Numbered from the stretch's first letter, positions 4,149 to 64,000 are shown. The stretch is DNA of 64,000 nt from a phage (PZ445554.1), one strand, 5' to 3'. Made by a program: numbers and translations. The notes: generated from the letters alone by a model not told the origin.

Positions 4149-5349
4149 ATTTTGTAATAATGTCAAACTGTTCTTTAAAGCAGAAGCTTGAATCTTGATG
4201 CTGATACAAAAATTCATATGCTTTTTCTCGCTCACGGTCATAAAGAGCTCGGTCAGATGACAGTTCTTTAATACGTTCAAATGTTGATTCCATGTCATTT
4301 TCATCAAACCAAATGATACCGCTATCATGCGAGGTCAAAGGAGTATTATCAACACGGAATTTTAAATTTTCGCCAGTAGATTTCCAAAATACCGGAATTG
4401 TTCCACATGCACCAAGCTCGAGATGAGTATATTCTAAAGAACGTTGTAGATATTTTTTATCCAACTTACTCAACTGATAACCAAAACCGGATTTACTCAT
4501 GCGTTCAAGCATTTCGCTATTTACATAACGGTCAAGAATTTGCGTTGGCAAATTAGGAGCAATTTTAATTTGGTCTACTTGATGAAGACGATAATACTCG
4601 TATGGAATTCCTTTTTCTTTAATAGGAATGAACGCTGGAGAACGTTCCAGACCTTCCATAATAGTACTTAGTCCTGCAGGTTTAAGATGTTTTTCGTGAA
4701 AATCAAACATCTGATAAAAACCTTTCCATGTAGTCGTACGACCAATCCAACGATTGATATTCATGTTAATTTCAGAAACATCTTTCCAGTAGGTTGACCG
4801 AACCTTCGCAATATCCATAGGAGGCTGAAAGTTATATACTGTCGGCGCTTCTTCAATATCATCAAATAAAGAAACTGTTTCAGGATACCACTCTTTCATC
4901 AGAACTTTATTAAAATCACCATTATCAGAATGACTAAAAATAACATCAGCTCGACGAACAGTTTCTTCTAATCCCAAATTTCGGCGCAAAGAAAGAGAAG
5001 AGTGGTCATGTTGATAAACTACAACACGAACCGAAGGTTTAATGTTATCAATAATTTTTTTATAGTTATTAATAGTGTCTTCTTCAACTGAAGTAGCAGG
5101 AACTGAATTGATAATTAGAATATCACAATCATTTACCAGCTTAAGTGTTTTATCGTATTCTTTTGCCAATAAAACCGGAATTGAAAATGATTTATAATCA
5201 TGTGCACAGTTACGAGTAAATGATTTATCTTTAGCATAAACCAAAGTTACTTCATGACCATTTTTAATAAACCAATCACGTTGCTCAAGAGAAAATTTAG
5301 TTACACCACAACCTTCAAGACCCCGAGCCATAAAAATACATACTTTCAT
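4147..5349 (-). CDS. a-gt: DNA alpha-glucosyltransferase (hydroxymethylcytosine glucosylation)
   Basis: 400 aa; begins MKVCIFMARGLEGCGVTKFSLEQRDWFIKNGHEVTLVYAKDKSF, recognised as the T4 alpha-gt sequence; same length as T4 enzyme. Confidence 0.95.
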   Translation of the reverse strand: MKVCIFMARGLEGCGVTKFSLEQRDWFIKNGHEVTLVYAKDKSFTRNCAHDYKSFSIPVLLAKEYDKTLKLVNDCDILIINSVPATSVEEDTINNYKKIIDNIKPSVRVVVYQHDHSSLSLRRNLGLEETVRRADVIFSHSDNGDFNKVLMKEWYPETVSLFDDIEEAPTVYNFQPPMDIAKVRSTYWKDVSEINMNINRWIGRTTTWKGFYQMFDFHEKHLKPAGLSTIMEGLERSPAFIPIKEKGIPYEYYRLHQVDQIKIAPNLPTQILDRYVNSEMLERMSKSGFGYQLSKLDKKYLQRSLEYTHLELGACGTIPVFWKSTGENLKFRVDNTPLTSHDSGIIWFDENDMESTFERIKELSSDRALYDREREKAYEFLYQHQDSSFCFKEQFDIITK

Positions 5350-5400
5350 TTAATATCCTCTTTGTTTTGGTTTATTTTACCAAAAATTTATAAAGCAATA

Positions 5401-9691: not shown

Positions 9692-10162
9692 TTAATCATG
9701 TTTCCACACCCCATCGGTATTTGACCAAAGCCGCTGATTATCTGATCCTCGCCACAGCTTTTTAGTCGGAAGATTTTTCTCATACTTCCCATCAATAATA
9801 ACATCAACATATTTAAGCATTTCTAGTTGTTTAATATCTTCAAACTTATATCCTGTCCACAACCAAATGCTTTTATTGGGATAAAGATTTTTTACTGTTT
9901 GAACGATGCAATGAATAACATCTCGGTTATCAGGATAGAGAGGGTCTCCTCCAGTTATAGTTAATCCTTCTATATAATCATTATTCAAACATTCAATTAA
10001 TTGTTCTAGTGTTTCACCAGTGAATGGAATACCATTTCTAGCATTCCATGTTGATTTATTATAACACCCTTCACATTTATGCAAACAACCTGTAACGAAA
10101 AGAACGACCCTGCAACCAGGGCCATTCACAAAATCACAAGGATAAAATCTATCATAATTCAT
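9692..10162 (-). CDS. nrdG: anaerobic ribonucleotide reductase activating protein (radical SAM)
   Basis: 156 aa; CLHKCEGCYN radical-SAM cysteine cluster; 4-nt overlap with nrdD. Confidence 0.9.
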   Translation of the reverse strand: MNYDRFYPCDFVNGPGCRVVLFVTGCLHKCEGCYNKSTWNARNGIPFTGETLEQLIECLNNDYIEGLTITGGDPLYPDNRDVIHCIVQTVKNLYPNKSIWLWTGYKFEDIKQLEMLKYVDVIIDGKYEKNLPTKKLWRGSDNQRLWSNTDGVWKHD

Positions 10163-11976
10163 TGATGCTTAACCCTATGCATGATTTCTTTATTTTTACC
10201 GAGATTAAATCCGCGTTCGTTAGGATTTCCCAAATAACCACATGTTCTTCTTATTGTGTTCATCTTTTTAGGATCAGTTTCTCCACAAATAGAACAAACA
10301 AATCCGTTTTCAGTAGGAGTCATTTCATGGGTACTTCCGCATGTAAAACATTTATCTACCGGCATGTTAACACCAAAATAATCTAAATGTTGTGCAGCAT
10401 AATCCCATACGGCCTCAAGACCCTTTAAGTTATTTTTCATATCAGGAAGTTCAACATAAGAAATGTGACCACCTGTCGCAATGAAATGATATGGCGCTTC
10501 ACGAGAAATCTTTTCAAACGGAGTAATATTTTCTTCTACTGAGACATGGAAACTGTTAGTGTACCAGCCTTTATCGGTAACATCTTTTACGCTTCCATAT
10601 TTTTCTGTATCGAGTTTACAGAAGCGATAACAAAGGTTTTCAGCAGGAGTCGAATATAAACTAAAAGCAAATCCGGTTCTTTCAGTCCACTGTTTAAGAT
10701 GAGCATTCATTTTAGTTAAAATTTCTCGTCCAATATCACGACCGACAAGAATATTCAATTCGTGAATACCAATGTATCCTAAAGACACTGAACTTCTACC
10801 GTTTTTAAATAACTCAATTATGTCGTCATCAGGTTTAAGACGAACCCCAAATGCACCTTCTTGGTAAAGAATAGGAGCAACAGTAGCTTTAACTCCTTTT
10901 AAGGAACTAATTCTACACATCAAAGCTTCAAAACATAAATCCATTCGTTCATTGAATAATTCAACAAATTTCTGTTCATTGAACTGTGTTCCAATATAAG
11001 AATCTAACGCGATGCGAGGAAGATTCAATGTTACAACACCAAGATTATTACGTCCATCAAGAATTTCATTGCCAGTCGAATCTTTCCATACGCTCAAGAA
11101 ACTACGGCAACCCATTGGAGAAACAGGAACAGATGAACCAGTGATAGCTTTATTATTCTTAGCTGAAATAATATCAGGATACATTCTTTTGCTTGCACAC
11201 TCTAGAGCAAGCTGCTTAATATCATAGTTCGGATCGTCTTTATAAAGATTAACACCTTCTTCAACGAACATAACAAGCTTAGGGAAAATAGGAGTTATCC
11301 CATCACGACCAAGACCTTTAATACGATTTTTCAGAATTGCTTTCTGAATCATTCGTTCAGTCCAGTCAGTTCCCGTACCAAATGTAATTGTTACAAAAGG
11401 AGTCTGTCCGTTTGAACTAAAGAGAGTATTTACTTCATATTCATAAGCTTGGAATGCATCGTATACGTCTTTTTCTGTTTTAGATTGAGCATAATTCAAC
11501 GCATCAGCGATTTGCCATTTTTCTGCATCCTCAATATGTTTTGCATAGGTGCGTTTAACATAAGGAGAAAGTACTTTATCTACATTCGCAAAAGTCGTTC
11601 CGCCGTATTGGTGAGAAGCAACCTGTGCAGTAATTTGTGCCATAATTGCAGTAGCAACGCCAATTGATTTAGGAGTTTCAATCTGTGCATTACCAAGCTT
11701 AAATCCGTTCTCAAGCATTCCTTTTAAATCTACTAAACAGCAATTAGTAAATGGAAGAGCAGGGGAATAATCAATATCATGGAAATGAATAATTCCGCTT
11801 TCATGCGCTTTCATAATAAAAGACGGGACCATATTTTTGGCAATGTGTTTAGACACAATACCAGCCATAAGGTCCCGTTGAGTTGGAAAAACACGAGAAT
11901 CTTTATTAGCATTCTCGTTTAAAAGGTCTTTATTAGTTTTATGAATCAATCCTTCAATTTCTTTTTCAATTGTCAT
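10159..11976 (-). CDS. nrdD: anaerobic ribonucleoside-triphosphate reductase (glycyl radical enzyme)
   Basis: 605 aa; C-terminal glycyl-radical motif RTCGYLG and Zn-ribbon cysteines (CFTCGS...CSICG); one uninterrupted ORF. Confidence 0.95.
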   Translation of the reverse strand: MTIEKEIEGLIHKTNKDLLNENANKDSRVFPTQRDLMAGIVSKHIAKNMVPSFIMKAHESGIIHFHDIDYSPALPFTNCCLVDLKGMLENGFKLGNAQIETPKSIGVATAIMAQITAQVASHQYGGTTFANVDKVLSPYVKRTYAKHIEDAEKWQIADALNYAQSKTEKDVYDAFQAYEYEVNTLFSSNGQTPFVTITFGTGTDWTERMIQKAILKNRIKGLGRDGITPIFPKLVMFVEEGVNLYKDDPNYDIKQLALECASKRMYPDIISAKNNKAITGSSVPVSPMGCRSFLSVWKDSTGNEILDGRNNLGVVTLNLPRIALDSYIGTQFNEQKFVELFNERMDLCFEALMCRISSLKGVKATVAPILYQEGAFGVRLKPDDDIIELFKNGRSSVSLGYIGIHELNILVGRDIGREILTKMNAHLKQWTERTGFAFSLYSTPAENLCYRFCKLDTEKYGSVKDVTDKGWYTNSFHVSVEENITPFEKISREAPYHFIATGGHISYVELPDMKNNLKGLEAVWDYAAQHLDYFGVNMPVDKCFTCGSTHEMTPTENGFVCSICGETDPKKMNTIRRTCGYLGNPNERGFNLGKNKEIMHRVKHQ

Positions 11977-19267: not shown

Positions 19268-19795
19268 TTATGCGAGTACCGTCTTTAACCGTTCTTCAAA
19301 CTTCCGAAGAGTATTTTGGCGTTCAGCTCTTTGCTTTTTGTAAGTTTCAATACGCTCTGAAATGAGATTGTATCGTTCATTTACTGATTCTTTCATAAAA
19401 TCAGGAATTTCACGAGAAGCTTTAATCTCGTCAAATTTATCAATAACAGCTTGCTCTTCAGCAATTAAGTTATCATACATCAAAATATCTTTCTTGATGA
19501 ACTCAATATCTTCTTGAGTTACACGAGATAATTTAGATGCTTTATCCTTTTTGTACTGTTCGTTAGTATCACGAGACCAGTGTAATGTACGATTTTTATT
19601 CGTATTCTTGTAAATTTCTACAATACCAATCTCATCGATAATAACGATCCAATTCCAACGGGATTTGTAAATTTGTCCTCCATCAACCGTGATTTCACCT
19701 CCGATTGAGATGTCATTAAAGAACTTGCTTTGTGCTTCAGATTTAAATTTACCATCGTTGTAATTTACCAGGTTGAAAATATCTTTAGCGTTCAT
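19268..19795 (-). CDS. hypothetical protein
   Basis: 175 aa; GGAGGAAC RBS; directly downstream of early promoter. Confidence 0.55.
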   Translation of the reverse strand: MNAKDIFNLVNYNDGKFKSEAQSKFFNDISIGGEITVDGGQIYKSRWNWIVIIDEIGIVEIYKNTNKNRTLHWSRDTNEQYKKDKASKLSRVTQEDIEFIKKDILMYDNLIAEEQAVIDKFDEIKASREIPDFMKESVNERYNLISERIETYKKQRAERQNTLRKFEERLKTVLA

Positions 19796-19823
19796 TTTGT
19801 GTTCCTCCGTAGTTGATAGTTGT

Positions 19824-19853
19824 ATAGTACCACAGAGGAACAGTCTTGTAAAC
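19824..19853 (-). promoter_or_regulatory. T4-type early promoter
   Basis: Minus strand GTTTAC-N18-TACTAT with upstream TGG; conserved module also at 21263, 24835, 36359. Confidence 0.5.
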
Positions 19854-19855
19854 CA

Positions 19856-20170
19856 CTAAAAGAAACTTCTTTCACAATTTTTTCCACTGAACCACGCGCT
19901 CACTGCTTTCTTAGTCTCAGGAGCAGTGTTATCCATAAACCATTCAAAGGCAGCCTTTTTATGATTCTGGAGGGCTTCTCGGGCTTTAATCTGCTCACGG
20001 TCTATTAACACTAACATATGAGCCTTTCTTGTCACCAAGGGCTTCTTATGATTCTTGGAGTATTCCCAGTCATTTGTCCAACGCATTGTCGTTGCGAACT
20101 GATGAACCGCGTCTTTAATTTTAGTTTCGTAAATTTCACGAGCCTTTGAGTATAACATCACTACCTCCAT
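19856..20170 (-). CDS. hypothetical protein
   Basis: 104-aa ORF. Confidence 0.5.
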   Translation of the reverse strand: MEVVMLYSKAREIYETKIKDAVHQFATTMRWTNDWEYSKNHKKPLVTRKAHMLVLIDREQIKAREALQNHKKAAFEWFMDNTAPETKKAVSAWFSGKNCERSFF

Positions 20171-20259: not shown

Positions 20260-21240
20260 TTATTTCAGAAGAGTAACCTCAGCAATTTCTTCCCAACCGT
20301 TTTTGTCGGTCATAATAAAGTCAGCAAGATAAAGTGCAGTACGCAGTGAAACATTGCGTAAACGATTAACATTGACTTTCATCCATGATAATGCTTTATA
20401 AGTTTCTTCATCAGAAAGACCGCGCTTTTGCATCATGTCAGTTGAAAGAATAACATCTTCAACCCTGACCATAATTTCTTCATTAGTGTGAACACCCAAA
20501 TCCAAATAAACTGAGCGGGACACTAATGCTTGTAAATGTGGAGCAAGTTTAGTACCACGGTCTAATTCGCGGTCAATATCAACGTTTGTGATAAAAACAA
20601 TTGTTCCTTTAAATTCAAACTCACGGTCAATGCCTTTTTCTTCTAAGTAAGAAGATGCAGTACTCCAGCAGACTTTACGGGTCTCTCCAGTGTCCAGAGC
20701 AGCTTTCAGAAGATTAAGAATGTCCATATCAGAGAAAACATCCACATCATCAATCAAAAGGACAGAATTCTCTTCACGATTATTCCAAAGCTGCTCATAA
20801 AGACCGATACCAGAGATTTTACCATTAATGCTTTTATACTCAATGTATCCAATATCATTTGCTTTATTTAAAGCTTTATCTAAAGAATACGTTTTACCAA
20901 TACCCGCCGCACCAGAGATAATTAATGAACGAATGTTTCCGTTAATAATACCATTCGTCATCATTCCCATAACATTAAATCTTTTATTAATGCGGGTTTT
21001 CATATCTTCATATGATTCTTTAACTTCTTCAACTTTTACGCCATCATATGAAATGTCTGATTTGTAAACCCAAACACCGCGACGTTTACCGTCAATTTCA
21101 ACAAAAACTTTACCATCTCCTTGTGCATCTACCGGAGCATTATCTGGGAACCATTCGCCTAAGAGCTCAAAAGTTCCAGAGATTTCTTTACCGAAGTAGA
21201 TACCCTTATTGATAGTTACAGTTTTCATTTTATTCTCCAA
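20260..21240 (-). CDS. AAA+ family ATPase
   Basis: 326 aa; Walker A GAAGIGKT, Walker B VLLIDDVD, sensor-like TIVFITN; ~90-aa N-terminal beta-rich domain. Confidence 0.7.
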   Translation of the reverse strand: MENKMKTVTINKGIYFGKEISGTFELLGEWFPDNAPVDAQGDGKVFVEIDGKRRGVWVYKSDISYDGVKVEEVKESYEDMKTRINKRFNVMGMMTNGIINGNIRSLIISGAAGIGKTYSLDKALNKANDIGYIEYKSINGKISGIGLYEQLWNNREENSVLLIDDVDVFSDMDILNLLKAALDTGETRKVCWSTASSYLEEKGIDREFEFKGTIVFITNVDIDRELDRGTKLAPHLQALVSRSVYLDLGVHTNEEIMVRVEDVILSTDMMQKRGLSDEETYKALSWMKVNVNRLRNVSLRTALYLADFIMTDKNGWEEIAEVTLLK

Positions 21241-21262
21241 ATCCGTATCAGTTGATAGTTGT

Positions 21263-21292
21263 ATAGTACCATAAAGCTTTATGCTTGTAAAC
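21263..21292 (-). promoter_or_regulatory. T4-type early promoter
   Basis: GTTTAC-N18-TACTAT (minus) followed by conserved leader ACAACTATCAACTG and GGAG RBS of the ATPase gene. Confidence 0.5.
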
Positions 21293-21322
21293 CGTTTTGT
21301 GAAAAATTTTTGAAATAAAAAA

Positions 21323-21340
21323 GGGAGCCCGAAGGCTCCC
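21323..21340 (-). terminator. rho-independent terminator
   Basis: GGGAGCC-TTCG-GGCTCCC hairpin immediately after the nucleotidyltransferase stop, then TTTTTT. Confidence 0.55.
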
Positions 21341-21342
21341 TA

Positions 21343-22356: not shown

Positions 22357-22814
22357 TCAGCCTTATATTCAATAACAGGACATACTTTAGCTTTACGAGC
22401 TTTTAAAAATTCAACGATAACCGATTTCTTGGGTTGAATAGGAGGTAAACCTTTATACGCCCTATCAATATTTTCTACGTGTAAAGCATAATCCTTTTTC
22501 CATTTATAATCTTTATATTTTTCACGCAAATGTGCAGGAATAACAAATGAACCAATAATAAGTAAAACAACCAAAAGCGCAAGTATAAATGCCGATGGAA
22601 GAAGAGTCCATAAACTACCAAAAATAAGCCAGCGCTGTAAACTTTCTGCACAAATAATTGTTAGCCCTACGAGTATAGCACACCCAAAAATAGAAACGAA
22701 AAATGTAGGGATAACAATAGACCAAAAATATGCGCATAGTGTCTTAGGTCGTTGCCATTCATCGTTAAACAATTTGAATAATTTATAATGCCAAGAGTTT
22801 TCATTAATAATCAT
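22353..22814 (-). CDS. membrane protein
   Basis: 153 aa; two long hydrophobic segments. Confidence 0.55.
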   Translation of the reverse strand: MIINENSWHYKLFKLFNDEWQRPKTLCAYFWSIVIPTFFVSIFGCAILVGLTIICAESLQRWLIFGSLWTLLPSAFILALLVVLLIIGSFVIPAHLREKYKDYKWKKDYALHVENIDRAYKGLPPIQPKKSVIVEFLKARKAKVCPVIEYKAE

Positions 22815-22816
22815 AA

Positions 22817-23338
22817 TTATCCTTTCATTGAAGGTGTAACAGTTGTTAAATACTTAATCATAGCTTCAGCTTCTGATTTTGATAATGAAATTTCTCCATT
22901 GTTTTGACGAATAGAAATAAAATCCGGATGACGGTCACCACCAGCTTTTAAAACACACATATAAGTATCAACTTCGCCTTCAATATTTGAAATGATTGAA
23001 GCAGTTCCACATGAATGCGGTTTTTGATAAATCAATACAGCTTTTCTTCCGCCATTTGACTGCTCATAGGCTTTTAATACATCAAGCAAATCAGTTCTTT
23101 TATCAATAGCTAAAATGTTATTTTCATCTTCAATGTTAAATCCTTCAGATACTTCATAAAGCGTTACCCATAAATCACCAATGTCAATAACAGCATTTAC
23201 TTTTCCACGGCTTTCAAGAGTATGACAAATTTTCTTGATTTCGTCATAACTCATTTTAATAATATCATCTCCTTGACTAAGGAAGATGTCATTTTTAAAT
23301 TCAACACGAATTAAACCACTTCCACTTGAAATAAACAT
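22817..23338 (-). CDS. hypothetical protein (paralogue of next ORF)
   Basis: 173 aa; C-terminus ISLSKSEAEAMIKYLTTVTPSM matches ITLNKDEAIALKTYLDSVIPTM of 23345..23890. Confidence 0.55.
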   Translation of the reverse strand: MFISSGSGLIRVEFKNDIFLSQGDDIIKMSYDEIKKICHTLESRGKVNAVIDIGDLWVTLYEVSEGFNIEDENNILAIDKRTDLLDVLKAYEQSNGGRKAVLIYQKPHSCGTASIISNIEGEVDTYMCVLKAGGDRHPDFISIRQNNGEISLSKSEAEAMIKYLTTVTPSMKG

Positions 23339-24654: not shown

Positions 24655-24806
24655 GCCATGTGAGTTGCAACTTCATCACACATATTATAACGTTTCTTAA
24701 GAAGTTCTACAAGTTCTTCACTAGTAACTTCATCCATGTCGACGAAAAAATCACCATTAATGATGACGTAGATATTTCCTTCTTGATTGAGTGCTTCAAT
24801 TTTCAT
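24618..24806 (-). CDS. hypothetical protein
   Basis: ORF 24618..24851 trimmed to [10 protein letters not shown] start with AAGAGGAGAA RBS, downstream of the promoter's predicted start site. Confidence 0.45.
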
Positions 24807-24834
24807 GATGTTCTCCTCTTTATCTGATAGTTGT

Positions 24835-24864
24835 ATAGTACCACAACTCAAACGGAAAGTAAAC
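24835..24864 (-). promoter_or_regulatory. T4-type early promoter
   Basis: GTTTAC-N18-TACTAT plus conserved ACAACTATCA leader. Confidence 0.5.
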
Positions 24865-24879
24865 CGGTAAAATGAAAAA

Positions 24880-24897
24880 AGTCTCCCGAAGGAGACT
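24880..24897 (-). terminator. rho-independent terminator
   Basis: AGTCTCC-TTCG-GGAGACT hairpin after stop at 24902, followed by TTTTTT. Confidence 0.5.
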
Positions 24898-26969: not shown

Positions 26970-27178
26970 TTCGGTTTACCTTCTTTAACGAAATCTGGAT
27001 AAGGATAAAATCCCGAATAAAATCCTTCACCTTTATGATTGATGCATCCTTTATTAGAACAATAGCACCAATAATCGAAATCACAAGCCATTTCATCGTT
27101 GCATAAAGCAAAAACAACCGGCCACTTACACTTTTCACAATGGGCATTTTTAAGAATACTAGTTTGGCTCATAACCAT
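26966..27178 (-). CDS. cysteine-rich small protein
   Basis: 70 aa with 8 Cys (CEKCKW...CNDEMACDFDYWCYCSNKGC). Confidence 0.5.
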   Translation of the reverse strand: MVMSQTSILKNAHCEKCKWPVVFALCNDEMACDFDYWCYCSNKGCINHKGEGFYSGFYPYPDFVKEGKPK

Positions 27179-28734: not shown

Positions 28735-29196
28735 TCATTGAGTTTTAATTACTGCTTTAGAAGCCTTTCCTGGTAAACGACGACTGTTAATAATTGCCAT
28801 CCTACATTGAAGTGACGGGTCTTTGAACTTCTCGTTAGGTTTACAAACTGTAAATCCAAGCCAAAGATTTCCATCTGTGATTTCTAAACGTCCAGGACGA
28901 TATTCAACCCCATCAATAAAATCCTCGTCAATGTCAGGACGCGGAGGCATACTCAGGAATTCATTAACTTCTAAAACATGGTCTTTTATTTTATGGAATA
29001 ATTCAAAAACATATGTCTCATCAATCTCCCGCTGAATTGCGCGATCAAGAAGATGCTGAGAATATTTTAGATGAAACGATGAGACCCTTGCTGCTTTTGA
29101 TGCCTCACGAATCTCATTGTTAATTTGACGAAACTCCGACTCAAAGTGACGACGAAGCTTATTTCGACGGATAAAAACTTCTGTATTGATAGTCAT
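28735..29196 (-). CDS. regB: site-specific endoribonuclease RegB
   Basis: 153 aa; MTINTEVFIRRNKLRRHFESEFRQINNEIRE... recognised as T4 RegB. Confidence 0.9.
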   Translation of the reverse strand: MTINTEVFIRRNKLRRHFESEFRQINNEIREASKAARVSSFHLKYSQHLLDRAIQREIDETYVFELFHKIKDHVLEVNEFLSMPPRPDIDEDFIDGVEYRPGRLEITDGNLWLGFTVCKPNEKFKDPSLQCRMAIINSRRLPGKASKAVIKTQ

Positions 29197-29223
29197 GTTG
29201 TTCTCCTCTTAACTGATAGAAAA

Positions 29224-29253
29224 ATTATACCACAGTCAAGAGGAAAAGTAAAC
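29224..29253 (-). promoter_or_regulatory. T4-type early promoter upstream of regB
   Basis: GTTTAC-N18-TATAAT with TGG extension; GAGGAGAA RBS follows. Confidence 0.5.
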
Positions 29254-31872: not shown

Positions 31873-32289
31873 TTAAATGTAAATATTTTTGCCGTAATAC
31901 TTGTACCAGTGTGGCTTCATTAAAATTTTTTCATCAAGTCGTTGTTGACTCAATTTAATAGCTGATTTGCATGGATTATAATCATTTTTCCATTCTGCTG
32001 GAATATCGCTGATGTCAGGAACTTCAGTATCTTTTATACTGAACCCGCGTTTTAAGCATTCCGTTATAATGTCTAATTGACGCTTTCGCAAAAATTCTAA
32101 CTTATCGTAAAAGAAAGTAACATGACCAGAACCTAAAATAAATTTAGAAGATATTTTAAAATCTTTAACGCGCTTACCGTTTGCCACATGCTTACGAACT
32201 ATACCAAAAACACGTGGCAATTCACGGTATTCTGCTATTAAATGTTGATCAGCAAGTTCAGATACTAAAGTCAAATTAATACGAGTCAT
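31873..32289 (-). CDS. denV: endonuclease V (pyrimidine-dimer DNA glycosylase)
   Basis: 138 aa; [43 protein letters not shown] recognised as T4 DenV. Confidence 0.92.
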
Positions 32290-32314
32290 TTTATCCCTCC
32301 AAGTAACTGTGAAT

Positions 32315-32344
32315 ATACTATCACAATTCTAGGAGAAAGTAAAC
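32315..32344 (-). promoter_or_regulatory. T4-type early promoter upstream of denV
   Basis: GTTTAC-N18-TAGTAT (minus), GGAGGGA RBS follows. Confidence 0.45.
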
Positions 32345-36051: not shown

Positions 36052-36327
36052 TTATTTCATATTATTGAAATATTCTTCTGCAATTTCGTCGTTATCATGG
36101 TAAACTTTAGAAGACAGTTTAACATAACCTTCAGCAGTGAACATGTTAATCACAACCTTTACAGTATACCACTGACCGTCTTCATTACCCATTACTGCAT
36201 AAGTTTCAAACATCGGATGGTCAGGACCGATAACTTTAATATCATTCACCGTACGACCAAAATCTTCTGAAACACATTTCATAAAGAAGTTGAACAGTTC
36301 ACCGTAATTATCCATTTCATTCTCCAA
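36052..36327 (-). CDS. hypothetical protein
   Basis: 91-aa ORF, GGAGAATGAA RBS, downstream of early promoter. Confidence 0.5.
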   Translation of the reverse strand: MENEMDNYGELFNFFMKCVSEDFGRTVNDIKVIGPDHPMFETYAVMGNEDGQWYTVKVVINMFTAEGYVKLSSKVYHDNDEIAEEYFNNMK

Positions 36328-36358
36328 GTTGTTTTCTGTATCAGCAGTTGATAGTTGT

Positions 36359-36388
36359 ATAGTACCATGGAAGAACAGGGATGTAAAC
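36359..36388 (-). promoter_or_regulatory. T4-type early promoter
   Basis: GTTTAC-N18-TACTAT with conserved ACAACTATCAACTG leader and A/T-rich upstream element. Confidence 0.5.
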
Positions 36389-36496: not shown

Positions 36497-36548
36497 AGAG
36501 GCCCGAAAAGGCCTAGATACCAAAAAGCCCCAACCTTTCGGTCGGGGC
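36497..36548 (-). terminator. tandem rho-independent terminators ending the tRNA/stable-RNA operon
   Basis: GCCCCGACC-GAAA-GGTTGGGGC followed by TTTTTG (36521-36548) and AGGCC-TTTTCG-GGCCT (36499-36514) on minus strand. Confidence 0.6.
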
Positions 36549-36836
36549 TAAGCCTTGCGGCAACCTTGTCGGGGTTCCACCTGCTAAGGCAAGTGTTTGT
36601 ACGAAACGCCGGGACTTGAACCCGGTTATTAAGTAGTTGACGCTACTCAATATTTTTAAAAGGCCATATCTCGACCATATCCGAACGTTCCGTCAAAAAC
36701 GCTACTCGGCTTACGGCAAAGATATTTCCTCGAATCGATAATTCGGTGCGCCGTTTCTGCTGTGATGTAAGAGGGCATCAATAAACGCAAAGATTATTAA
36801 CGCAATTCCTTACTCAGGGAACATCAGTCCGACGAC
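36549..36836 (-). ncRNA. probable small stable RNA(s) downstream of tRNA-Arg
   Basis: No ORF; GC-richer than surroundings; contains tRNA T-arm-like CCGGGTTCAAGTCCCGG; by position analogous to T4 stable RNA species; boundaries not defined. Confidence 0.3.
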
Positions 36837-37391
36837 TTACCGGTAGCGACCCGGTTTCTCATTTGGTATTTCAAATTGTGTAGATTTAGTATCTAATTTT
36901 TTAACTATGGAACTTATGTCATGAAAGAAAAACCATTCACCATTTATATGGTCCTGATTATAAATGCTGTGCATATATTTTTCAAGTTCTACTGCATCCT
37001 GGGAATATCTAAATGATACTATTTTAAAACTTTTAAACGGTGAAAATGTATTTGCTGTTATAACTCTAACATCAGGTTCTATACTTCTTCCTATTTTATA
37101 ATAATTAGGATTTGTAGTATCTACCATTATGTATACGAAAGCCTGTCGATAGCTTTTTTCTATATCAAATTCATCTTTAAATTTCAAAAGATTTAGGGCG
37201 GCAGTCCTACAAAATACTTTCCATTTTGACAAGCGTTTGGCTTTAGTCATAGAAAAGAATTTTTTCTTATCTGTTATTTTAAGAAAAGCAACATTTTCAA
37301 TTAGTTCTTGTGTTATTTCAAAATTACCATGGTATATTAATCCAGCTTTTATAGCCAAATTAATTTGGTCCCAGTCTACATCACTTCTCAT
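36837..37391 (-). CDS. T5orf172-domain protein (GIY-YIG superfamily, putative mobile endonuclease-like)
   Basis: 184 aa; C-terminal half FVYIMVDTTNPNYYKIGRS...SQDAVELEKYMHSIYNQDHINGEWFFF matches the T5orf172 core (YKIGxT...E..xH...GEWF). Confidence 0.65.
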   Translation of the reverse strand: MRSDVDWDQINLAIKAGLIYHGNFEITQELIENVAFLKITDKKKFFSMTKAKRLSKWKVFCRTAALNLLKFKDEFDIEKSYRQAFVYIMVDTTNPNYYKIGRSIEPDVRVITANTFSPFKSFKIVSFRYSQDAVELEKYMHSIYNQDHINGEWFFFHDISSIVKKLDTKSTQFEIPNEKPGRYR

Positions 37392-37412
37392 AATATTATT
37401 CTCTCAATAATT

Positions 37413-37489
37413 TGGCCAGGGTGAAAGGATTCTAACCTTTAACCTGCGGTTTAGAGGACCGCTACTCTATACAATTGAGTTACACCCCG
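37413..37489 (-). tRNA. tRNA-Arg (anticodon TCT)
   Basis: Cloverleaf: acceptor CGGGGTG/CACCCTG, D-stem ACTC/GAGT, anticodon stem GCGGT/ACCGC loop CCTCTAA, T-arm AAAGG-TTAGAAT-CCTTT, CCA encoded; unusual C33. Confidence 0.6.
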
Positions 37490-37615
37490 TAATTAGTTCA
37501 CAGCAATACCTACTCCAACAATCAAGATGTCTTCACACGAAATTAAGAGAAGAGTGATCAGTTCAACCCCTATAATCGCGTCAAGTAGATATTAATGTGA
37601 CAACTGTCACAAGTT

Positions 37616-37690
37616 TGGCGGACGTGATAGGATTCGAACCTATAACCAATCGCTTAACAGGCGATCGCTCTGCCATTGAGCTACACATCC
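37616..37690 (-). tRNA. tRNA-Asn (anticodon GTT)
   Basis: Acceptor GGATGTG/CACGTCC, D-arm GCTC-AATGGCA-GAGC, anticodon loop CTGTTAA, T-arm ATAGG-TTCGAAT-CCTAT, GCCA 3' end. Confidence 0.7.
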
Positions 37691-37694
37691 AAAT

Positions 37695-37781
37695 TGGTGG
37701 GGAGTGGTGGAGTCGAACCACCCGAGTCGCAATGACAATGAATTTACAGTCCACACCGCTACCTCTACGGGATAACTCCCC
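37695..37781 (-). tRNA. tRNA-Tyr (anticodon GTA)
   Basis: Class II tRNA, long variable arm; acceptor GGGGAGT/ACTCCCC, anticodon loop CTGTAAA, T-arm GGTGG-TTCGACT-CCACC, CCA encoded. Confidence 0.6.
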
Positions 37782-37794
37782 CTAATTCGTAATT

Positions 37795-37869
37795 TGGTGA
37801 CCCTGGGTGGAATTGAACCACCATCTGGCGATTATGAGTCGCTTGCTTGAACCTTCCAGCTACAGGGCC
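37795..37869 (-). tRNA. tRNA-Ile (anticodon CAT, lysidine type)
   Basis: Anticodon stem-loop GCGACTCATAATCGC identical to E. coli tRNA-Ile2; acceptor GGCCCTG/CAGGGTC; T-arm GGTGG-TTCAATT-CCACC; CCA encoded. Confidence 0.65.
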
Positions 37870-37870
37870 T

Positions 37871-37946
37871 TGGTGCTGATTGACGGAATCGAACCGCCGA
37901 CGTCCTCATTACAAGTGAGGTGCTCTACCTACTGAGCTAAATCAGC
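37871..37946 (-). tRNA. tRNA-Thr (anticodon TGT)
   Basis: Acceptor GCTGATT/AATCAGC, D-arm GCTC-AGTAGGTA-GAGC, anticodon stem CCTCA/TGAGG loop CTTGTAA, T-loop TTCGATT, CCA encoded. Confidence 0.7.
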
Positions 37947-37951
37947 AAAAC

Positions 37952-38041
37952 TGGCGGAGGCGATAGGATTTGAACCTATGAGTCGCCGGAGCGACTGCCG
38001 GTTTTCAAGACCGGTGCATTAAACCACTCTGCCACGCCTCC
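37952..38041 (-). tRNA. tRNA-Ser (anticodon TGA)
   Basis: Class II; acceptor GGAGGCG/CGCCTCC, anticodon stem CCGGT/ACCGG loop CTTGAAA, long variable arm, T-arm ATAGG-TTCAAAT-CCTAT, CCA encoded. Confidence 0.7.
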
Positions 38042-38043
38042 AG

Positions 38044-38117
38044 TCTCCGTGGCAGGATTTGAACCTACGACATTCTGCTCCCAAAGCAGACGCTCTACCA
38101 AACTGAGCTACACGGAG
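38044..38117 (-). tRNA. tRNA-Pro (anticodon TGG)
   Basis: Acceptor CTCCGTG/CACGGAG, D-arm GCTC-AGTTTGGTA-GAGC, anticodon stem TCTGC/GCAGA loop TTTGGGA; CCA not encoded. Confidence 0.65.
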
Positions 38118-38127
38118 TAAATTAAAT

Positions 38128-38201
<74 letters not shown>

Positions 38202-38206
38202 AAATT

Positions 38207-38293
38207 TGGTGCGAGAAGTGGGACTCGAACCCACAAGGAAATCATTCCGCAGCATTTTAAGTGCTGTGCCTTTACCAATTTGACCATTCTCGC
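38207..38293 (-). tRNA. tRNA-Leu (anticodon TAA)
   Basis: Class II; GCGAGAATGGTCAAATTGGTAAAGGCACAGCACTTAAAATGCTGCGG...GGGTTCGAGTCCCACTTCTCGCACCA recognised as T4 tRNA-Leu. Confidence 0.8.
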
Positions 38294-38294
38294 G

Positions 38295-38367
38295 CTGGGA
38301 ATAAAGGACTCGAACCTTTGCATCCTGGAATCAAAATCCAGTGCCTTACCAACTTGGCTAATTCCCA
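38295..38367 (-). tRNA. tRNA-Gln (anticodon TTG)
   Basis: Acceptor TGGGAAT/ATTCCCA, anticodon stem CTGGA/TCCAG loop TTTTGAT, T-arm AAAGG-TTCGAGT-CCTTT; CCA not encoded; 1 nt from tRNA-Leu. Confidence 0.7.
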
Positions 38368-39164: not shown

Positions 39165-39350
39165 TTATTCACCTTTAGAAATTTTATCCATAACAATAGC
39201 AATTAAACCAATTAAAAATGCTACTACAAGTGAAAACACATTTTCTGCTGTAGTCAATAATCCACATATAAATCCAACAAACATTGAAAAACTAAAAGCG
39301 GAAGCAGAAATTGCAATAGCAACATTTCGAATTAATTCACAACGTTTCAT
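39165..39350 (-). CDS. small membrane protein
   Basis: 61 aa; two hydrophobic helices. Confidence 0.5.
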   Translation of the reverse strand: MKRCELIRNVAIAISASAFSFSMFVGFICGLLTTAENVFSLVVAFLIGLIAIVMDKISKGE

Positions 39351-39378
39351 TTTATTCTCCTCAGTAGTAGATAGGGTA

Positions 39379-39408
39379 ATAGTATCACTACCCTATCTAA
39401 AAGTAAAC
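39379..39408 (-). promoter_or_regulatory. T4-type early promoter inside an 11-bp inverted repeat
   Basis: GTTTAC-N18-TACTAT; -10 element lies in loop of perfect inverted repeat TAGATAGGGTA/TACCCTATCTA (39368-39399). Confidence 0.5.
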
Positions 39409-39642
39409 TTATTTTTTACGAAAAATTGATTTATTTTCTGCTGCCCATTTTTCAATAACTGCAGCAGGACCAGTAACAACAATTTTATCACCGTAATCTT
39501 CTGCGGCGAGTTGACCGAAATTATCTAATGCATCACGAAGAACTCCATGAGGCATTTCACCCATTTTATCTTTCTTGCCAGTGTAAATAAACTCAACTTT
39601 TACATCAGCAGTTTCAGCAATAAATTCTTGGTAAGTTTTCAT
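39409..39642 (-). CDS. internal protein-like (IPI-type position, capsid targeting leader)
   Basis: ORF 39409..39654; from MKTYQEFIAE 77 aa; leader matches T-even internal-protein capsid targeting sequence. Confidence 0.6.
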   Translation of the reverse strand: MKTYQEFIAETADVKVEFIYTGKKDKMGEMPHGVLRDALDNFGQLAAEDYGDKIVVTGPAAVIEKWAAENKSIFRKK

Positions 39643-39676
39643 TTTGATTTCCATTTGGTTTTGTTTTGATAGGGTA

Positions 39677-39706
39677 ATAGTATCACAACTAAAACCCTAT
39701 GTAAAC
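39677..39706 (-). promoter_or_regulatory. T4-type early promoter inside inverted repeat
   Basis: GTTTAC-N18-TACTAT; flanked by ATAGGGT/ACCCTAT; 30-nt upstream block GTAAACAACTTTGTGAAATTATTTTAAATC repeated at 40031. Confidence 0.5.
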
Positions 39707-39718
39707 AACTTTGTGAAA

Positions 39719-39976
39719 TTATTTTAAATCTTCTAATCGTTTCTTCATCTTAGAACCGTTCTTAGCGATTTCGCCTGCATCAGAGCATAATGCTAAAAGC
39801 GCTTTAACTTTAGTTTGATCTCCTTTAAAAGATGAAGGATCAACAGCAGCAGCAAGTTCTTTAATACGAGAGAAAAGGCGCTCAGCTTCAGCTAAAGCCA
39901 TTCCAAGCTTTACTTCCATACCGTGGGAAGATTCAGTAATAGTAGTTTTTGTAGCAAACTCTTTGAAAGTTTTCAT
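39719..39976 (-). CDS. internal protein-like (capsid targeting leader variant)
   Basis: 85 aa; N-terminus MKTFKEFATK resembles the internal-protein leader; helical. Confidence 0.55.
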   Translation of the reverse strand: MKTFKEFATKTTITESSHGMEVKLGMALAEAERLFSRIKELAAAVDPSSFKGDQTKVKALLALCSDAGEIAKNGSKMKKRLEDLK

Positions 39977-40006
39977 TTTATTTTCCTAATTAATTTTGAT
40001 GAGATA

Positions 40007-40036
40007 ATAGTATCACTACCTCATCAGTATGTAAAC
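40007..40036 (-). promoter_or_regulatory. T4-type early promoter inside inverted repeat
   Basis: GTTTAC-N18-TACTAT; flanked by TGATGAG/CTCATCA inverted repeat. Confidence 0.5.
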
Positions 40037-40048
40037 AACTTTGTGAAA

Positions 40049-40733
<685 letters not shown>

Positions 40734-42970: not shown

Positions 42971-43422
42971 TATGCCCCCTTAAAGCCAAGAGCTCGTAAT
43001 CCATCTTCTGTTAGAATTCTAAATTTTATTCCACGCTTTTCAGCTAAAGATTGTGCTGCTTTCCATTTGTCGGTATTAACAGACCAGGTATAAATTTCAT
43101 TCATAAATCTTTTCTTCGCTGCGGTTGTTAGATGTGCTGGTTTAACCGGTGGTTGTGTTTCTTTTTTAGGTTTTATTTCAATAAAAAATTCTTGTCCAGA
43201 AGAATCTTTCATCCAAATATCCATGAAGTATCTACGTTTTTTTCCTTCTGCATTACAAAAATAAGGAATTACTGCTGTTTCACTACCCCATGCAATAATT
43301 TCTGGATTTTTATCTAACCATTCAAAAAAGAATTTTTCCCAATTTGATCTATACGTAATTTTTTTAGGGTCACCTCTATACTTTGATATATTTTTAGGAA
43401 CCCATTTTCCAGAATATGCCAT
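42970..43422 (-). CDS. 4: head completion protein gp4
   Basis: 150 aa; divergent from gene 53 across a late-promoter region. Confidence 0.85.
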
Positions 43423-43433
43423 TGGATTCTCCT

Positions 43434-43456
43434 TATAAATAGATAATATATTTATA
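43434..43456. promoter_or_regulatory. divergent late promoters for gene 53 (+) and gene 4 (-)
   Basis: TATAAATA on plus strand 43434-43441 (29 nt before gene 53 ATG) and on minus strand 43449-43456 (27 nt before gene 4 ATG). Confidence 0.7.
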
Positions 43457-43469
43457 AACAGGAGGGCCC

Positions 43470-44060
43470 ATGCTCTTTACATTTTTTGATCCGATTGAAT
43501 ATGCGGCCAAAACGGTGAATAAAAACGCGCCGACTATTCCTATGACAGATATTTTTAGAAACTATAAAGACTATTTTAAACGCGCTCTTGCGGGATACCG
43601 CTTACGTACTTATTATATCAAAGGTTCACCACGCCCGGAAGAATTAGCAAATACTATATATGGAAATCCACAGCTGTATTGGGTTTTATTGATGTGTAAT
43701 GATAATTATGATCCGTATTATGGATGGATTACTTCACAAGAAGCAGCTTATCAAGCATCTATACAAAAATACAAAAATGTAGGTGGAGACCAAATAGTAT
43801 ATCATGTGAATGAGAACGGTGAAAAATTTTATAATTTAATATCATACGATGATAATCCATATGTTTGGTATGATAAAGGTGATAAAGCTAGAAAATATCC
43901 TCAATATGAAGGAGCACTTGCTGCTGTTAATACGTATGAAGATGCTGTTCTTGAAAATGAAAAACTTCGTCAAATAAAAATAATAGCAAAATCAGACATT
44001 AATTCATTTATGAACGACCTTATACGTATAATGGAGAAATCTTATGGAAATGATAAGTAA
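43470..44060 (+). CDS. 53: baseplate wedge protein gp53
   Basis: 196 aa; GGAGGG RBS; first late gene downstream of late promoter. Confidence 0.88.
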   Translation: MLFTFFDPIEYAAKTVNKNAPTIPMTDIFRNYKDYFKRALAGYRLRTYYIKGSPRPEELANTIYGNPQLYWVLLMCNDNYDPYYGWITSQEAAYQASIQKYKNVGGDQIVYHVNENGEKFYNLISYDDNPYVWYDKGDKARKYPQYEGALAAVNTYEDAVLENEKLRQIKIIAKSDINSFMNDLIRIMEKSYGNDK

Positions 44061-45771
44061 TAACCTTAATTGGTTTGTTGGTGTTGTTGAAGATAGAATG
44101 GACCCATTAAAATTAGGTCGTGTTCGTGTTCGTGTGGTTGGTCTGCATCCACCTCAAAGAGCACAAGGTGATGTAATGGGTATTCCAACTGAAAAATTAC
44201 CATGGATGTCAGTTATTCAACCTATAACTTCTGCAGCAATGTCTGGAATTGGAGGTTCCGTTACTGGACCGGTAGAAGGAACTAGAGTTTATGGTCATTT
44301 TTTAGACAAATGGAAAACTAACGGAATTGTCCTTGGCACGTATGGTGGAATAGTTCGCGAAAAACCGAATAGACTTGAAGGATTTTCTGACCCAACTGGT
44401 CAATATCCTAGACGTTTAGGAAATGATACTAACGTATTAAACCAAGGCGGAGAAGTAGGATATGATTCGTCTTCTAACATTATCCAAGATAGTAACTTAG
44501 ACACCGCAATAAATCCCGATGATAGACCGCTATCAGAAATTCCAACTGATGATAATCCAAATATGTCAATGGCTGAAATGCTTCGCCGTGATGAAGGATT
44601 AAGACTAAAAGTTTATTGGGATACAGAAGGATATCCAACAATTGGTATTGGTCATCTTATCATGAAGCAGCCAGTTCGTGATATGGCTCAAATTAATAAA
44701 GTTTTATCAAAACAAGTTGGTCGTGAAATTACTGGAAACCCAGGTTCTATTACAATGGAAGAAGCGACGACTTTATTTGAACGTGATTTGGCTGATATGC
44801 AACGGGACATTAAATCACATTCTAAAGTAGGACCAGTCTGGCAAGCTGTCAACCGTTCTCGTCAAATGGCGTTAGAAAATATGGCATTTCAAATGGGTGT
44901 TGGCGGTGTAGCTAAATTTAACACAATGTTAACTGCTATGTTAGCCGGAGATTGGGAAAAAGCATATAAAGCCGGTCGTGATTCATTGTGGTATCAACAA
45001 ACAAAAGGCCGTGCATCCCGTGTTACCATGATTATTCTTACGGGGAATTTGGAATCATATGGTGTTGAAGTGAAAACCCCGGCTAGGTCTCTATCAGCAA
45101 TGGCTGCTACTGTAGCTAAATCTTCTGACCCTGCTGACCCTCCTATTCCAAATGACTCGAGAATTTTATTCAAAGAACCAGTTTCTTCATATAAAGGCGA
45201 ATATCCTTATGTGCATACAATGGAAACTGAAAGCGGACATATTCAGGAATTTGATGATACTCCTGGGCAAGAACGATACAGATTAGTTCATCCGACTGGA
45301 ACTTATGAAGAAGTATCACCGTCAGGAAGAAGAACAAGAAAAACTGTCGATAATTTGTATGATATAACCAACGCTGATGGTAATTTTTTGGTAGCCGGTG
45401 ATAAAAAGACTAACGTCGGTGGATCAGAAATTTATTACAACATGGATAATCGTTTACATCAAATCGATGGAAGCAATACAATATTTGTACGTGGCGATGA
45501 AACTAAGACAGTTGAAGGTAATGGAACTATCCTAGTTAAAGGTAATGTTACTATTGTAGTTGAAGGTAATGCTGACATCACAGTTAAAGGAGATGCTACC
45601 ACTTTAGTTGAAGGTAATCAAACTAATACAGTAAATGGAAATCTTTCTTGGAAAGTTGCTGGGACAGTTGATTGGGACGTTGGTGGTGATTGGACAGAAA
45701 AAATGGCATCTATGAGTTCTATTTCATCCGGTCAATACACAATTGATGGATCGAGGATTGACATTGGCTAA
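44044..45771 (+). CDS. 5: baseplate hub/cell-puncturing protein gp5 with lysozyme domain
   Basis: 575 aa; internal T4-lysozyme-like segment MAEMLRRDEGLRLKVYWDTEGYPTIGIGHLI; C-terminal VxGxxxxxV beta-helix repeats. Confidence 0.93.
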   Translation: MEMISNNLNWFVGVVEDRMDPLKLGRVRVRVVGLHPPQRAQGDVMGIPTEKLPWMSVIQPITSAAMSGIGGSVTGPVEGTRVYGHFLDKWKTNGIVLGTYGGIVREKPNRLEGFSDPTGQYPRRLGNDTNVLNQGGEVGYDSSSNIIQDSNLDTAINPDDRPLSEIPTDDNPNMSMAEMLRRDEGLRLKVYWDTEGYPTIGIGHLIMKQPVRDMAQINKVLSKQVGREITGNPGSITMEEATTLFERDLADMQRDIKSHSKVGPVWQAVNRSRQMALENMAFQMGVGGVAKFNTMLTAMLAGDWEKAYKAGRDSLWYQQTKGRASRVTMIILTGNLESYGVEVKTPARSLSAMAATVAKSSDPADPPIPNDSRILFKEPVSSYKGEYPYVHTMETESGHIQEFDDTPGQERYRLVHPTGTYEEVSPSGRRTRKTVDNLYDITNADGNFLVAGDKKTNVGGSEIYYNMDNRLHQIDGSNTIFVRGDETKTVEGNGTILVKGNVTIVVEGNADITVKGDATTLVEGNQTNTVNGNLSWKVAGTVDWDVGGDWTEKMASMSSISSGQYTIDGSRIDIG

Positions 45772-57622: not shown

Positions 57623-59089
<1,467 letters not shown>

Positions 59090-60863: not shown

Positions 60864-64000
<3,137 letters not shown>

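Follow-up and report, generated by a model that had tools for sequence, protein, structure and literature searches.

Early promoters of a T4-like phage recur as a conserved frame around a variable spacer, with a predicted hairpin that may mask the ribosome-binding site of one copy in read-through RNA

The early promoters (Pe) of bacteriophage T4 were reportedly described by Liebig and Rüger in 1989 and by Wilkens and Rüger in 1994. Their consensus has GTTTAC at -36 to -31 (Nolan et al. 2006, PMC1524935), the promoter consensus of the promoter-early stem-loop (PeSL) elements of T4 and PST reads TTTACW-N17-TAYWAT (PMC4122927), and T4 early promoters are regarded as an "uber" UP/-35/TGn/-10 type with additional conserved regions (Hinton 2010, PMC2988021). 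The PeSL model itself, together with experimental mini-circles, has been published (Arbiol et al. 2010, PMC2839356; Comeau et al. 2014, PMC4122927), and T4 is known to recombine at microhomologies of 6–10 bp (PMC9391042). RNA structure around the ribosome-binding site is also familiar from T4: in e, soc, 49, and I-TevI, long transcripts keep the Shine–Dalgarno (SD) sequence masked, and an internal late promoter yields RNA in which it is free (Uzan and Miller 2010, PMC3014915 section 29). Sites of the type cleaved by the phage nuclease RegB follow the consensus GG*AGRAYARAA (PMC3014915 section 8).

The window analysed here is a 64,000-nt stretch of phage DNA (PZ445554.1). Its region belongs to Tequatrovirus, with ~97 per cent identity over 8 kb to teqsoen, slur02, JK38, and many others, and, a series of indels excepted, it is collinear with T4 from ~33 kb to 76 kb, the gene order agreeing with that of T4 nrdC-tk and e-tRNA. 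Four repeated blocks in the window precede genes that, by position and size, are homologs of T4 nrdC.8 (copy 1), nrdC.10 (copy 2), mobD.5 (copy 3), and e.8 (copy 4); none of the four encoded proteins had a Pfam match above the cut-off. At the gathering threshold, Rfam recognized only tRNAs in the whole window and no family overlapping the four blocks. The T4 records NC_000866 and AF158101 are without promoter features in the corresponding region; Pe133295 is named in an incidental note of the T4 record. The blocks and the terminators near them are as follows:

19793..19853, minus strand: copy 1, early promoter of the nrdC.8 homolog; -35 GTTTAC 19853-19848, spacer 19847-19833, TGG 19832-19830, -10 TACTAT 19829-19824, predicted +1 A 19817, SD GGAGGA 19808-19803, ATG 19795-19793
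21226..21292, minus strand: copy 2, early promoter of the nrdC.10 homolog; -35 21292-21287, TGG 21271-21269, -10 21268-21263, predicted +1 21256, SD GGAG 21238-21235 within GGAGAATAAAA, ATG 21228-21226
21322..21341, minus strand: intrinsic terminator AGGGAGCCTTCGGGCTCCCT plus T-run, 30 nt 5' of the copy 2 -35
24804..24864, minus strand: copy 3, early promoter of the mobD.5 homolog; -35 24864-24859, TGG 24843-24841, -10 24840-24835, predicted +1 24828, SD GGAG 24816-24813, ATG 24806-24804
24880..24897, minus strand: intrinsic terminator AGTCTCCTTCGGGAGACT plus T-run, 16 nt 5' of the copy 3 -35
36313..36388, minus strand: copy 4, early promoter of the e.8 homolog, with the UP-like A/T-rich tract AAAAATTTTTTCACAAAAC on its 5' side; -35 36388-36383, TGG 36367-36365, -10 36364-36359, predicted +1 36352, SD GGAG 36325-36322, ATG 36315-36313
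36526..36549, minus strand: intrinsic terminator AGCCCCGACCGAAAGGTTGGGGCT plus TTTT, ~140 nt 5' of copy 4, ending the upstream tRNA/small-RNA unit

A sequence-only reading of the window had described a ~40-nt block that recurs almost exactly at these four loci. The recurrence is confirmed, with coordinates within 2–5 nt, but "almost exactly" is too strong. Specifically, the 23-mer TGGTACTATACAACTATCAACTG is present on the minus strand at 19810-19832 (one mismatch), 21249-21271 (none), 24821-24843 (three), and 36345-36367 (none), and it had 0 matches in 100 dinucleotide-preserving shuffles. The multiple alignment of the four copies that the same reading had proposed leaves only GTTTAC and the 19-nt TGGTACTATACAACTATCA invariant (the two together occur four times, always on the minus strand, against a chance expectation of 0), whereas the 15-nt spacers from GTTTAC to TGG are strongly divergent. 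The gap written earlier as GTTTAC-N18 needs correction: 15 nt separate GTTTAC from TGG, and 18 nt is the distance that reaches TACTAT. What recurs is a pair of fixed elements with a variable spacer between them; a near-exact 40-mer is excluded. In all four copies, a GGAG-type SD (first base at 19808, 21238, 24816, and 36325) lies 11–26 nt past the core and is followed by ATG, so each block does stand directly upstream of a ribosome-binding site. The leader of copy 3 departs from those of the other copies past ACAACTATCA.

All four copies have an exact GTTTAC, TTTACA/T, 17 bp, TGG, and TACTAT. The corresponding pattern, GTTTAC-N15-TGN-TANNNT, matched 12 sites in the window (0.23 expected), all 12 on the minus strand, which encodes the early genes; a relaxed scan added three further sites with an SD and ATG downstream. 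The four loci are therefore real members of a set that is not closed. When 1–76 kb and 119–169 kb of T4 were scanned with the strict pattern, 29 sites were found, all on the early-gene strand, and nearly the same blocks occur at the T4 counterparts of copies 1–4 (G at 53943, 55384, 58780, and 70696). The start was set 36 nt downstream of the first base of GTTTAC. With this rule, the T4 pattern sites at 57990 and 133331 give +1 positions at 57954 and 133295; Pe57954 is a named T4 promoter (PMC6024815), and because the predicted starts equal the named Pe57954 and Pe133295, we consider both the pattern and the rule validated.

In their position before early genes, on the early-gene strand, with a TGn extended -10, TAnnnT, and, in copies 2 and 4, an UP-like A/T tract, the four copies resemble T4 Pe, and nothing essential sets them apart. 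What is unusual within Pe is the length of their common block, which runs from TGG to about +7, and copies 1, 2, and 4 share an extra leader stretch (ACTAC/ACTG). The sub-family to which the copies belong shares TGGTACTATACAACTATC and has T4 members at 27080, 53943, 55384, 58780, 70696, 146875, 163673 (motA), and 167086 (denB); among the eight T4 copies with TGGTACTATACAAC, seven have the full 19 nt, and the one at 58780 differs at one base. On the 5' side of the -35, copies 2 and 4 carry an A/T-rich tract with AAAAATTTTT(T)CACAAAAC, as in many T4 Pe; copy 3 has the T-run of its terminator at this place, and copy 1 the less A/T-rich end of the nrdC.9 coding sequence. The sigma-70-type architecture before SD and ATG, and the same layout at the T4 sites, agree with the earlier reading of the blocks as a promoter plus leader. 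The four blocks are almost certainly sigma-70-type early promoters of a T4-like phage, with activity and exact starts taken over from T4, and as modules they are known elements, the ordinary early promoters of a close T4 relative. Host RNA polymerase would bind the UP-like tract, the -35 GTTTAC(A/T), the 17-bp spacer ending in TGn, and the -10 TACTAT; initiation at the A 36 nt past the G of GTTTAC would then give an immediate burst of translatable nrdC.8, nrdC.10, mobD.5, and e.8 mRNA. Two forces have presumably kept the copies near-identical: a common selection on how polymerase recognizes them and initiates there, and exchange from one copy to another.

The leaders also have a candidate element for the later fate of these mRNAs, as GGAG is followed by an A-rich tract in all four. 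Compared to the RegB consensus, the copy 2 SD tract (GGAGAATAAAA) is a perfect match, copy 4 (GGAGAATGAAA) misses one of the seven positions after GGAG, copy 3 (GGAGAACATCA) misses two of the seven, and copy 1 (GGAGGAACACA) fits poorly. By analogy with T4, the module would combine a strong immediate start with a built-in predicted site for later mRNA inactivation, which is standard T4 early biology.

The copy 1 module differs from the other three in the folding of its read-through RNA. The structure is as follows:

19800..19842, minus strand: predicted RNA hairpin of copy 1; 5' arm UGUUCCUCUGUGGU 19842-19829, loop 19828-19814, 3' arm ACUACGGAGGAACA 19813-19800

The GTTCCTC and GAGGAAC arms that had been noticed around the -10 of the first copy are real and extend to a stem of 14 bp, two of them G·U, closed by a 15-nt loop (minimum free energy [MFE] -29.7 kcal/mol; z -3.9; 1 of 200 shuffles as good). 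The loop takes in most of the -10 hexamer along with the predicted +1 at 19817, and the 3' arm holds the whole SD GGAGGA. An RNA that starts at 19817 is predicted to be unstructured (MFE 0). The earlier suggestion that the arms sequester the SD in read-through transcripts is thus consistent with the folding models, in which the stem covers the SD in the long form and is gone from the short one. The duplex between the copy 1 spacer and its own leader, at -20.8 kcal/mol, is the best for that spacer among 12 leaders. Copies 2, 3, and 4 have no significant hairpin (z -1.7, -0.3, and -1.0, respectively; copy 3 has a weak local stem only), so among the four the claim stands for copy 1, and a hairpin as their common trait is rejected. 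Taken together, the promoter identity and the structural reality of the copy 1 hairpin are very probable.

In the nrdC.8 promoters of related phages, a hairpin is retained at this position with three different arm pairs: TGTTCCTCTGTGG with CTACGGAGGAACA, AGGTCTAT with ATAGACCT, and, in phage L011, TCTCCAGTAG with CTACTGGAGG. Relative to the L011 pair, the T4 denV promoter (TCTCCTGTAG with CTACAGGAGA) shows a compensatory exchange of T-A to A-T.

Copies 2, 3, and 4 follow intrinsic terminators (21341-21322, 24897-24880, and 36549-36526), and the stem-loops of the first two are annotated as terminators in phage R5505. Because no terminator was found in the interval between copy 2 and copy 1, read-through nrdC.8 transcripts should exist. 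Transcripts from the nrdC.10 promoter would carry a masked nrdC.8 ribosome-binding site, and those from Pe(nrdC.8) would have their 5' end in the loop, without the 5' arm, and would be open. According to this model, the hairpin would serve as the insulation of copy 1, the sole terminator-less copy of the four, and would not be a trait of the repeated module. We lean slightly toward the view that nrdC.8 is translated mainly from own-promoter transcripts through such translational masking. The nrdC.9 stop codon lies 13 nt 5' of the 5' arm, so the stem might be opened in part by a ribosome that terminates there, and the outcome would be translational coupling instead of a block. In T4, hairpins are weaker at promoters that follow a terminator (-7.1 vs -12.7 kcal/mol; one-sided P = 0.04; Fisher P = 0.11), a weak anticorrelation that is suggestive only. 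Hairpins of this kind as intrinsic terminators were also considered and rejected, as the stems are without a following U-tract.

Pairing between spacer and leader extends beyond copy 1 to other promoters of the window, including the following:

29190..29253, minus strand: regB promoter, same family; spacer UUUUCCUCUUGACUG pairs with CAGUUAAGAGGAGAA (duplex -23.3 kcal/mol, z -2.8)
39343..40061, minus strand: three tandem early-promoter modules at the internal-protein locus; G of GTTTAC at 40036, 39706, and 39408

At regB, whose T4 counterpart is at 62797, this pairing is predicted to sequester the SD in read-through RNA. The tandem modules flank small ORF cassettes, and each has a hairpin around its -10. 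Because the stems of different families lie in different registers and no single consensus structure can be drawn for them, we paired each promoter spacer with its own leader and compared the result to its pairing with the leaders of other promoters. For the 12 sites of the window, the duplex energy was -13.2 kcal/mol for cognate and -8.3 kcal/mol for non-cognate pairs (permutation P < 5e-5); for the 29 T4 sites, which are not fully independent because arms are common to paralogous promoters, the values were -11.2 and -7.0 kcal/mol (P < 2e-5). Strong stems were formed by 15 of the 29 cognate T4 pairs but by only 172 of the 812 non-cognate ones. Transition mismatches in the cognate T4 stems comprised 17 G·U and 1 A·C (null: 96 and 67), and sense strands folded better than antisense strands (-13.6 vs -9.9 kcal/mol; Wilcoxon P = 3e-4). 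The skew toward G·U and the sense-strand folding bias place the structure in the mRNA strand, and there in read-through RNA only.

The SD is buried in 8 of the 15 strong T4 stems (dexA, nrdC.8, regB, 123093, 130310, 136336, 166807, and, weakly, e.8); the other 7 stop just past the -10 and leave it free. As about half of the stems spare the SD, masking is not the sole role of the dyad symmetry. No description of early promoters inside hairpins was found in PMC2988021, PMC3014915, PMC2839356, and PMC4122927, the older primary T4 literature lying outside this search, and the genome-wide association of Pe with spacer–leader hairpins may be a modest, possibly undescribed extension. A more general proposal, which we put forward tentatively and regard as rather doubtful, is that about half of T4-type Pe are built into their own spacer–leader hairpins as a general post-transcriptional device, an alternative to a terminator that determines whether a gene is expressed from its own promoter only or also by read-through. 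If this were true, the Pe spacer would be under dual selection, as the spacer DNA seen by polymerase and as an RNA anti-SD arm, and it would become clear why spacer and leader travel as one module in cassette shuffling.

The suggestion that the modules can act as recombination substrates is already published in the form of the PeSL model. According to this explanation, which would add to the promoter role, the modules are mainly recombination cassettes, homology patches at which ORFs are inserted, deleted, or swapped, and their near-identity is a product of that exchange; we see its chances as evenly balanced. In phage R5505, a cassette with a 66-aa ORF is inserted directly past ...ACAACTATCAA of copy 2, and phages in IMG/VR join identical spacers to different leaders and genes, and the reverse. 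Phage L009 retains the copy 1 stem with another -10/+1 block. Additionally, the agreement of the window with T4 breaks off within the Pe modules 32344, 39408, and 39706 and at 29 nt from the 40036 module. However, none of the four copies lies at such a breakpoint, the deletion junction predicted for copies 2 and 1 was present in 0 of 660 matching phage records (synthetic junction query), and many other breakpoints are explained by the homing-endonuclease genes mobB, mobC, I-TevII, mobD, and segB. Recombination thus finds support at copy 2 and at further Pe sites, and none at copies 1, 3, and 4. In structure, copies 2 and 3 resemble a PeSL, with terminator stem-loop, Pe, and SD alike, in a hyperplastic region of small accessory ORFs. 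In contrast, the stem-loop of copy 1 wraps the -10, has no U-tract, and has no terminator upstream, so that copy 1 is not a full PeSL, and the terminator of copy 4 is ~140 nt away. In R5505, where the cassette is inserted, nrdC.10 has in turn come under a degenerate promoter, and this promoter has a hairpin of its own that surrounds the -10.

The hairpins themselves might serve RNA metabolism instead of translational masking, by shielding GGAG from RegB on long transcripts, by giving the upstream mRNA a protective 3' end after RegB or RNase E has cut downstream, or by making nrdC.8 translation depend on that of nrdC.9. RNA structure is known to shield GGAG from RegB (PMC3014915 section 8), and the GGAG with A-rich tract in all four leaders would offer a target. 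The seven strong T4 stems that end just 5' of the SD fit stability or processing better than masking, and in most hairpin-type promoters an upstream stop codon lies directly against the -35. On the other hand, the remaining 8 of the 15 bury the SD, those of copy 1 and regB among them, and in the closest tested T4 precedents, e and I-TevI, the structure blocks 30S binding (PMC3014915 section 29). We consider a role in RNA metabolism unlikely on this evidence, and less probable than masking at copy 1.

It is very improbable that the dyad symmetry acts in DNA, either as the site of a dimeric regulator (for example, a factor that shuts off early promoters) or as a cruciform. The mechanism by which T4 early promoters are shut off is not known (PMC2988021, PMC3014915), and in many promoters the -10 forms the centre of the symmetry. 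However, a sequence-specific protein is hard to reconcile with arms that differ entirely from one promoter to the next, and both the mismatches on the mRNA strand (17 G·U vs 1 A·C) and the stronger folding of the sense strand (P = 3e-4) disfavor a DNA palindrome, as symmetry in double-stranded DNA gives no such bias. A chance repeat can be dismissed, as can a transcribed structured RNA or the end of a mobile element with no link to promoters, given the 0 matches in 100 shuffles and the 12 sites against 0.23 expected, the lack of Rfam families overlapping the blocks, and their constant position and orientation before SD and ATG.

As such, the finding is a renewed encounter with T4 early promoters and with the PeSL idea, and its use lies in the annotation of four predicted transcription starts; the hairpin pattern deserves a modest follow-up. 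If Pe were routinely embedded in hairpins that cover the downstream ribosome-binding site in read-through RNA or lie just 5' of it, dozens of accessory genes would each have their timing, immediate-early or delayed-early, decided by a simple RNA switch, and many of these small accessory early genes are candidates for anti-defence functions, such as nrdC.5 (PMC9391042). The promoter spacer would then be a dual-purpose sequence, and the engineering of T4-like phages would have to move spacer and leader jointly.

The closest described counterparts of the proposed copy 1 switch are the masks of e, soc, 49, and I-TevI. As in these genes, the SD is predicted to be paired in RNA that started upstream, and the predicted start of the internal promoter lies inside the structure. 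Unlike them, copy 1 has an early sigma-70 promoter as its internal promoter and not a late gp55 promoter (TATAAATA), and the spacer between -35 and -10 of that very promoter supplies the 5' arm. The switch modelled for copy 1 would therefore part own-promoter from read-through expression within the early period, whereas the masks of e, soc, 49, and I-TevI part early from late. Copy 1 would work like the e/soc/49/I-TevI class but is not a strict member of it, as its promoter is of the early type.

Beyond copy 1 (the early promoter block before the nrdC.8 homologue), early promoters generally tend to lie inside RNA hairpins formed by their own leader and the spacer between their -35 and -10 elements, an observation that covers the early promoters of the window and three T4 loci (L001, L003 and L004). 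At the T4 early promoter sites, spacers pair more strongly with their cognate leaders than with those of other promoters (P < 2e-5), and mismatches within the spacer-leader stems comprise 17 G·U against one A·C. Besides copies 1-4, the window carries the following sites, each located by the G of GTTTAC:

8653, minus, early promoter
16878, minus, early promoter
24052, minus, early promoter, hairpin-embedded example
29253, minus, early promoter (regB), hairpin-embedded example
32344, minus, early promoter
39408, minus, early promoter, hairpin-embedded example
39706, minus, early promoter
40036, minus, early promoter, hairpin-embedded example

At 32287-32344 (minus), the counterpart of the T4 ipIII promoter (T4 66498) runs straight into the denV SD and ATG, the fusion point lying a few nucleotides past ...TTACTTG of the leader; ipII and ipIII are both missing from the window. 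T4 denV has an early promoter of its own, with a 14-nt spacing before TGA and a predicted 10-bp stem that would mask the SD.

Copy 2 precedes the nrdC.10 homologue (20260-21228, minus), in which residues ~96-201 weakly match Pfam P-loop/AAA and STAND NTPase models, all sub-threshold (top match: E-value 8e-5, 23 bits, below the cut-off of 27). In phage R5505 (MK373786.1 51887-52317; locus L038, 3190-3620), an extra 66-aa ORF separates the copy 2 promoter from nrdC.10. Downstream of this insertion, nrdC.10 is preceded by a degenerate promoter, GTATAC...TGTTATAGT, which lies between the arms of a perfect inverted repeat of 10 bp (GATAGGACTA and TAGTCCTATC).

Three SD regions resemble the RegB/S1 cleavage consensus GGAGRAYARAA:

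21235-21245, minus, copy 2, perfect match
24813-24823, minus, copy 3, two of the seven positions after GGAG mismatched
36322-36332, minus, copy 4, one of those seven mismatched

This fit implies that early inactivation of the mRNAs from copies 2, 3 and 4 would be programmed.

The internal-protein locus (39330-40060, minus) is unlike that of T4: two small ORFs flanked by three tandem promoter modules occupy the ipI position, and the T4 promoter region 73844-73967 has two matches (39610-39734 and 39942-40065). A cassette layout of this kind is what the PeSL/Repoila shuffling model would predict.

Further intervals differ from T4 (5340-5365, 10142-10162, 11438-11441, 22357-23320 and 36869-37850). 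The T4 homing-endonuclease genes mobB and mobC and the I-TevII intron are missing, ~960 bp with two different ORFs (153 and 173 aa) stand in place of mobD, and the sequence replacing the segB interval has no T4 match. Ten tRNA genes (37413-38367, minus: Arg, Asn, Tyr, Met-CAT, Thr, Ser, Pro, Gly, Leu and Gln) compare with eight in the T4 annotation, the two extras being Asn and Tyr; the CAT-anticodon tRNA is probably the counterpart of the T4 gene annotated as tRNA-Ile. Within ~43000-44500, a negative GC skew turns positive near 43-44 kb, the position of the T4 changeover from minus-strand early to plus-strand late genes, past 57A, 1 and 3.
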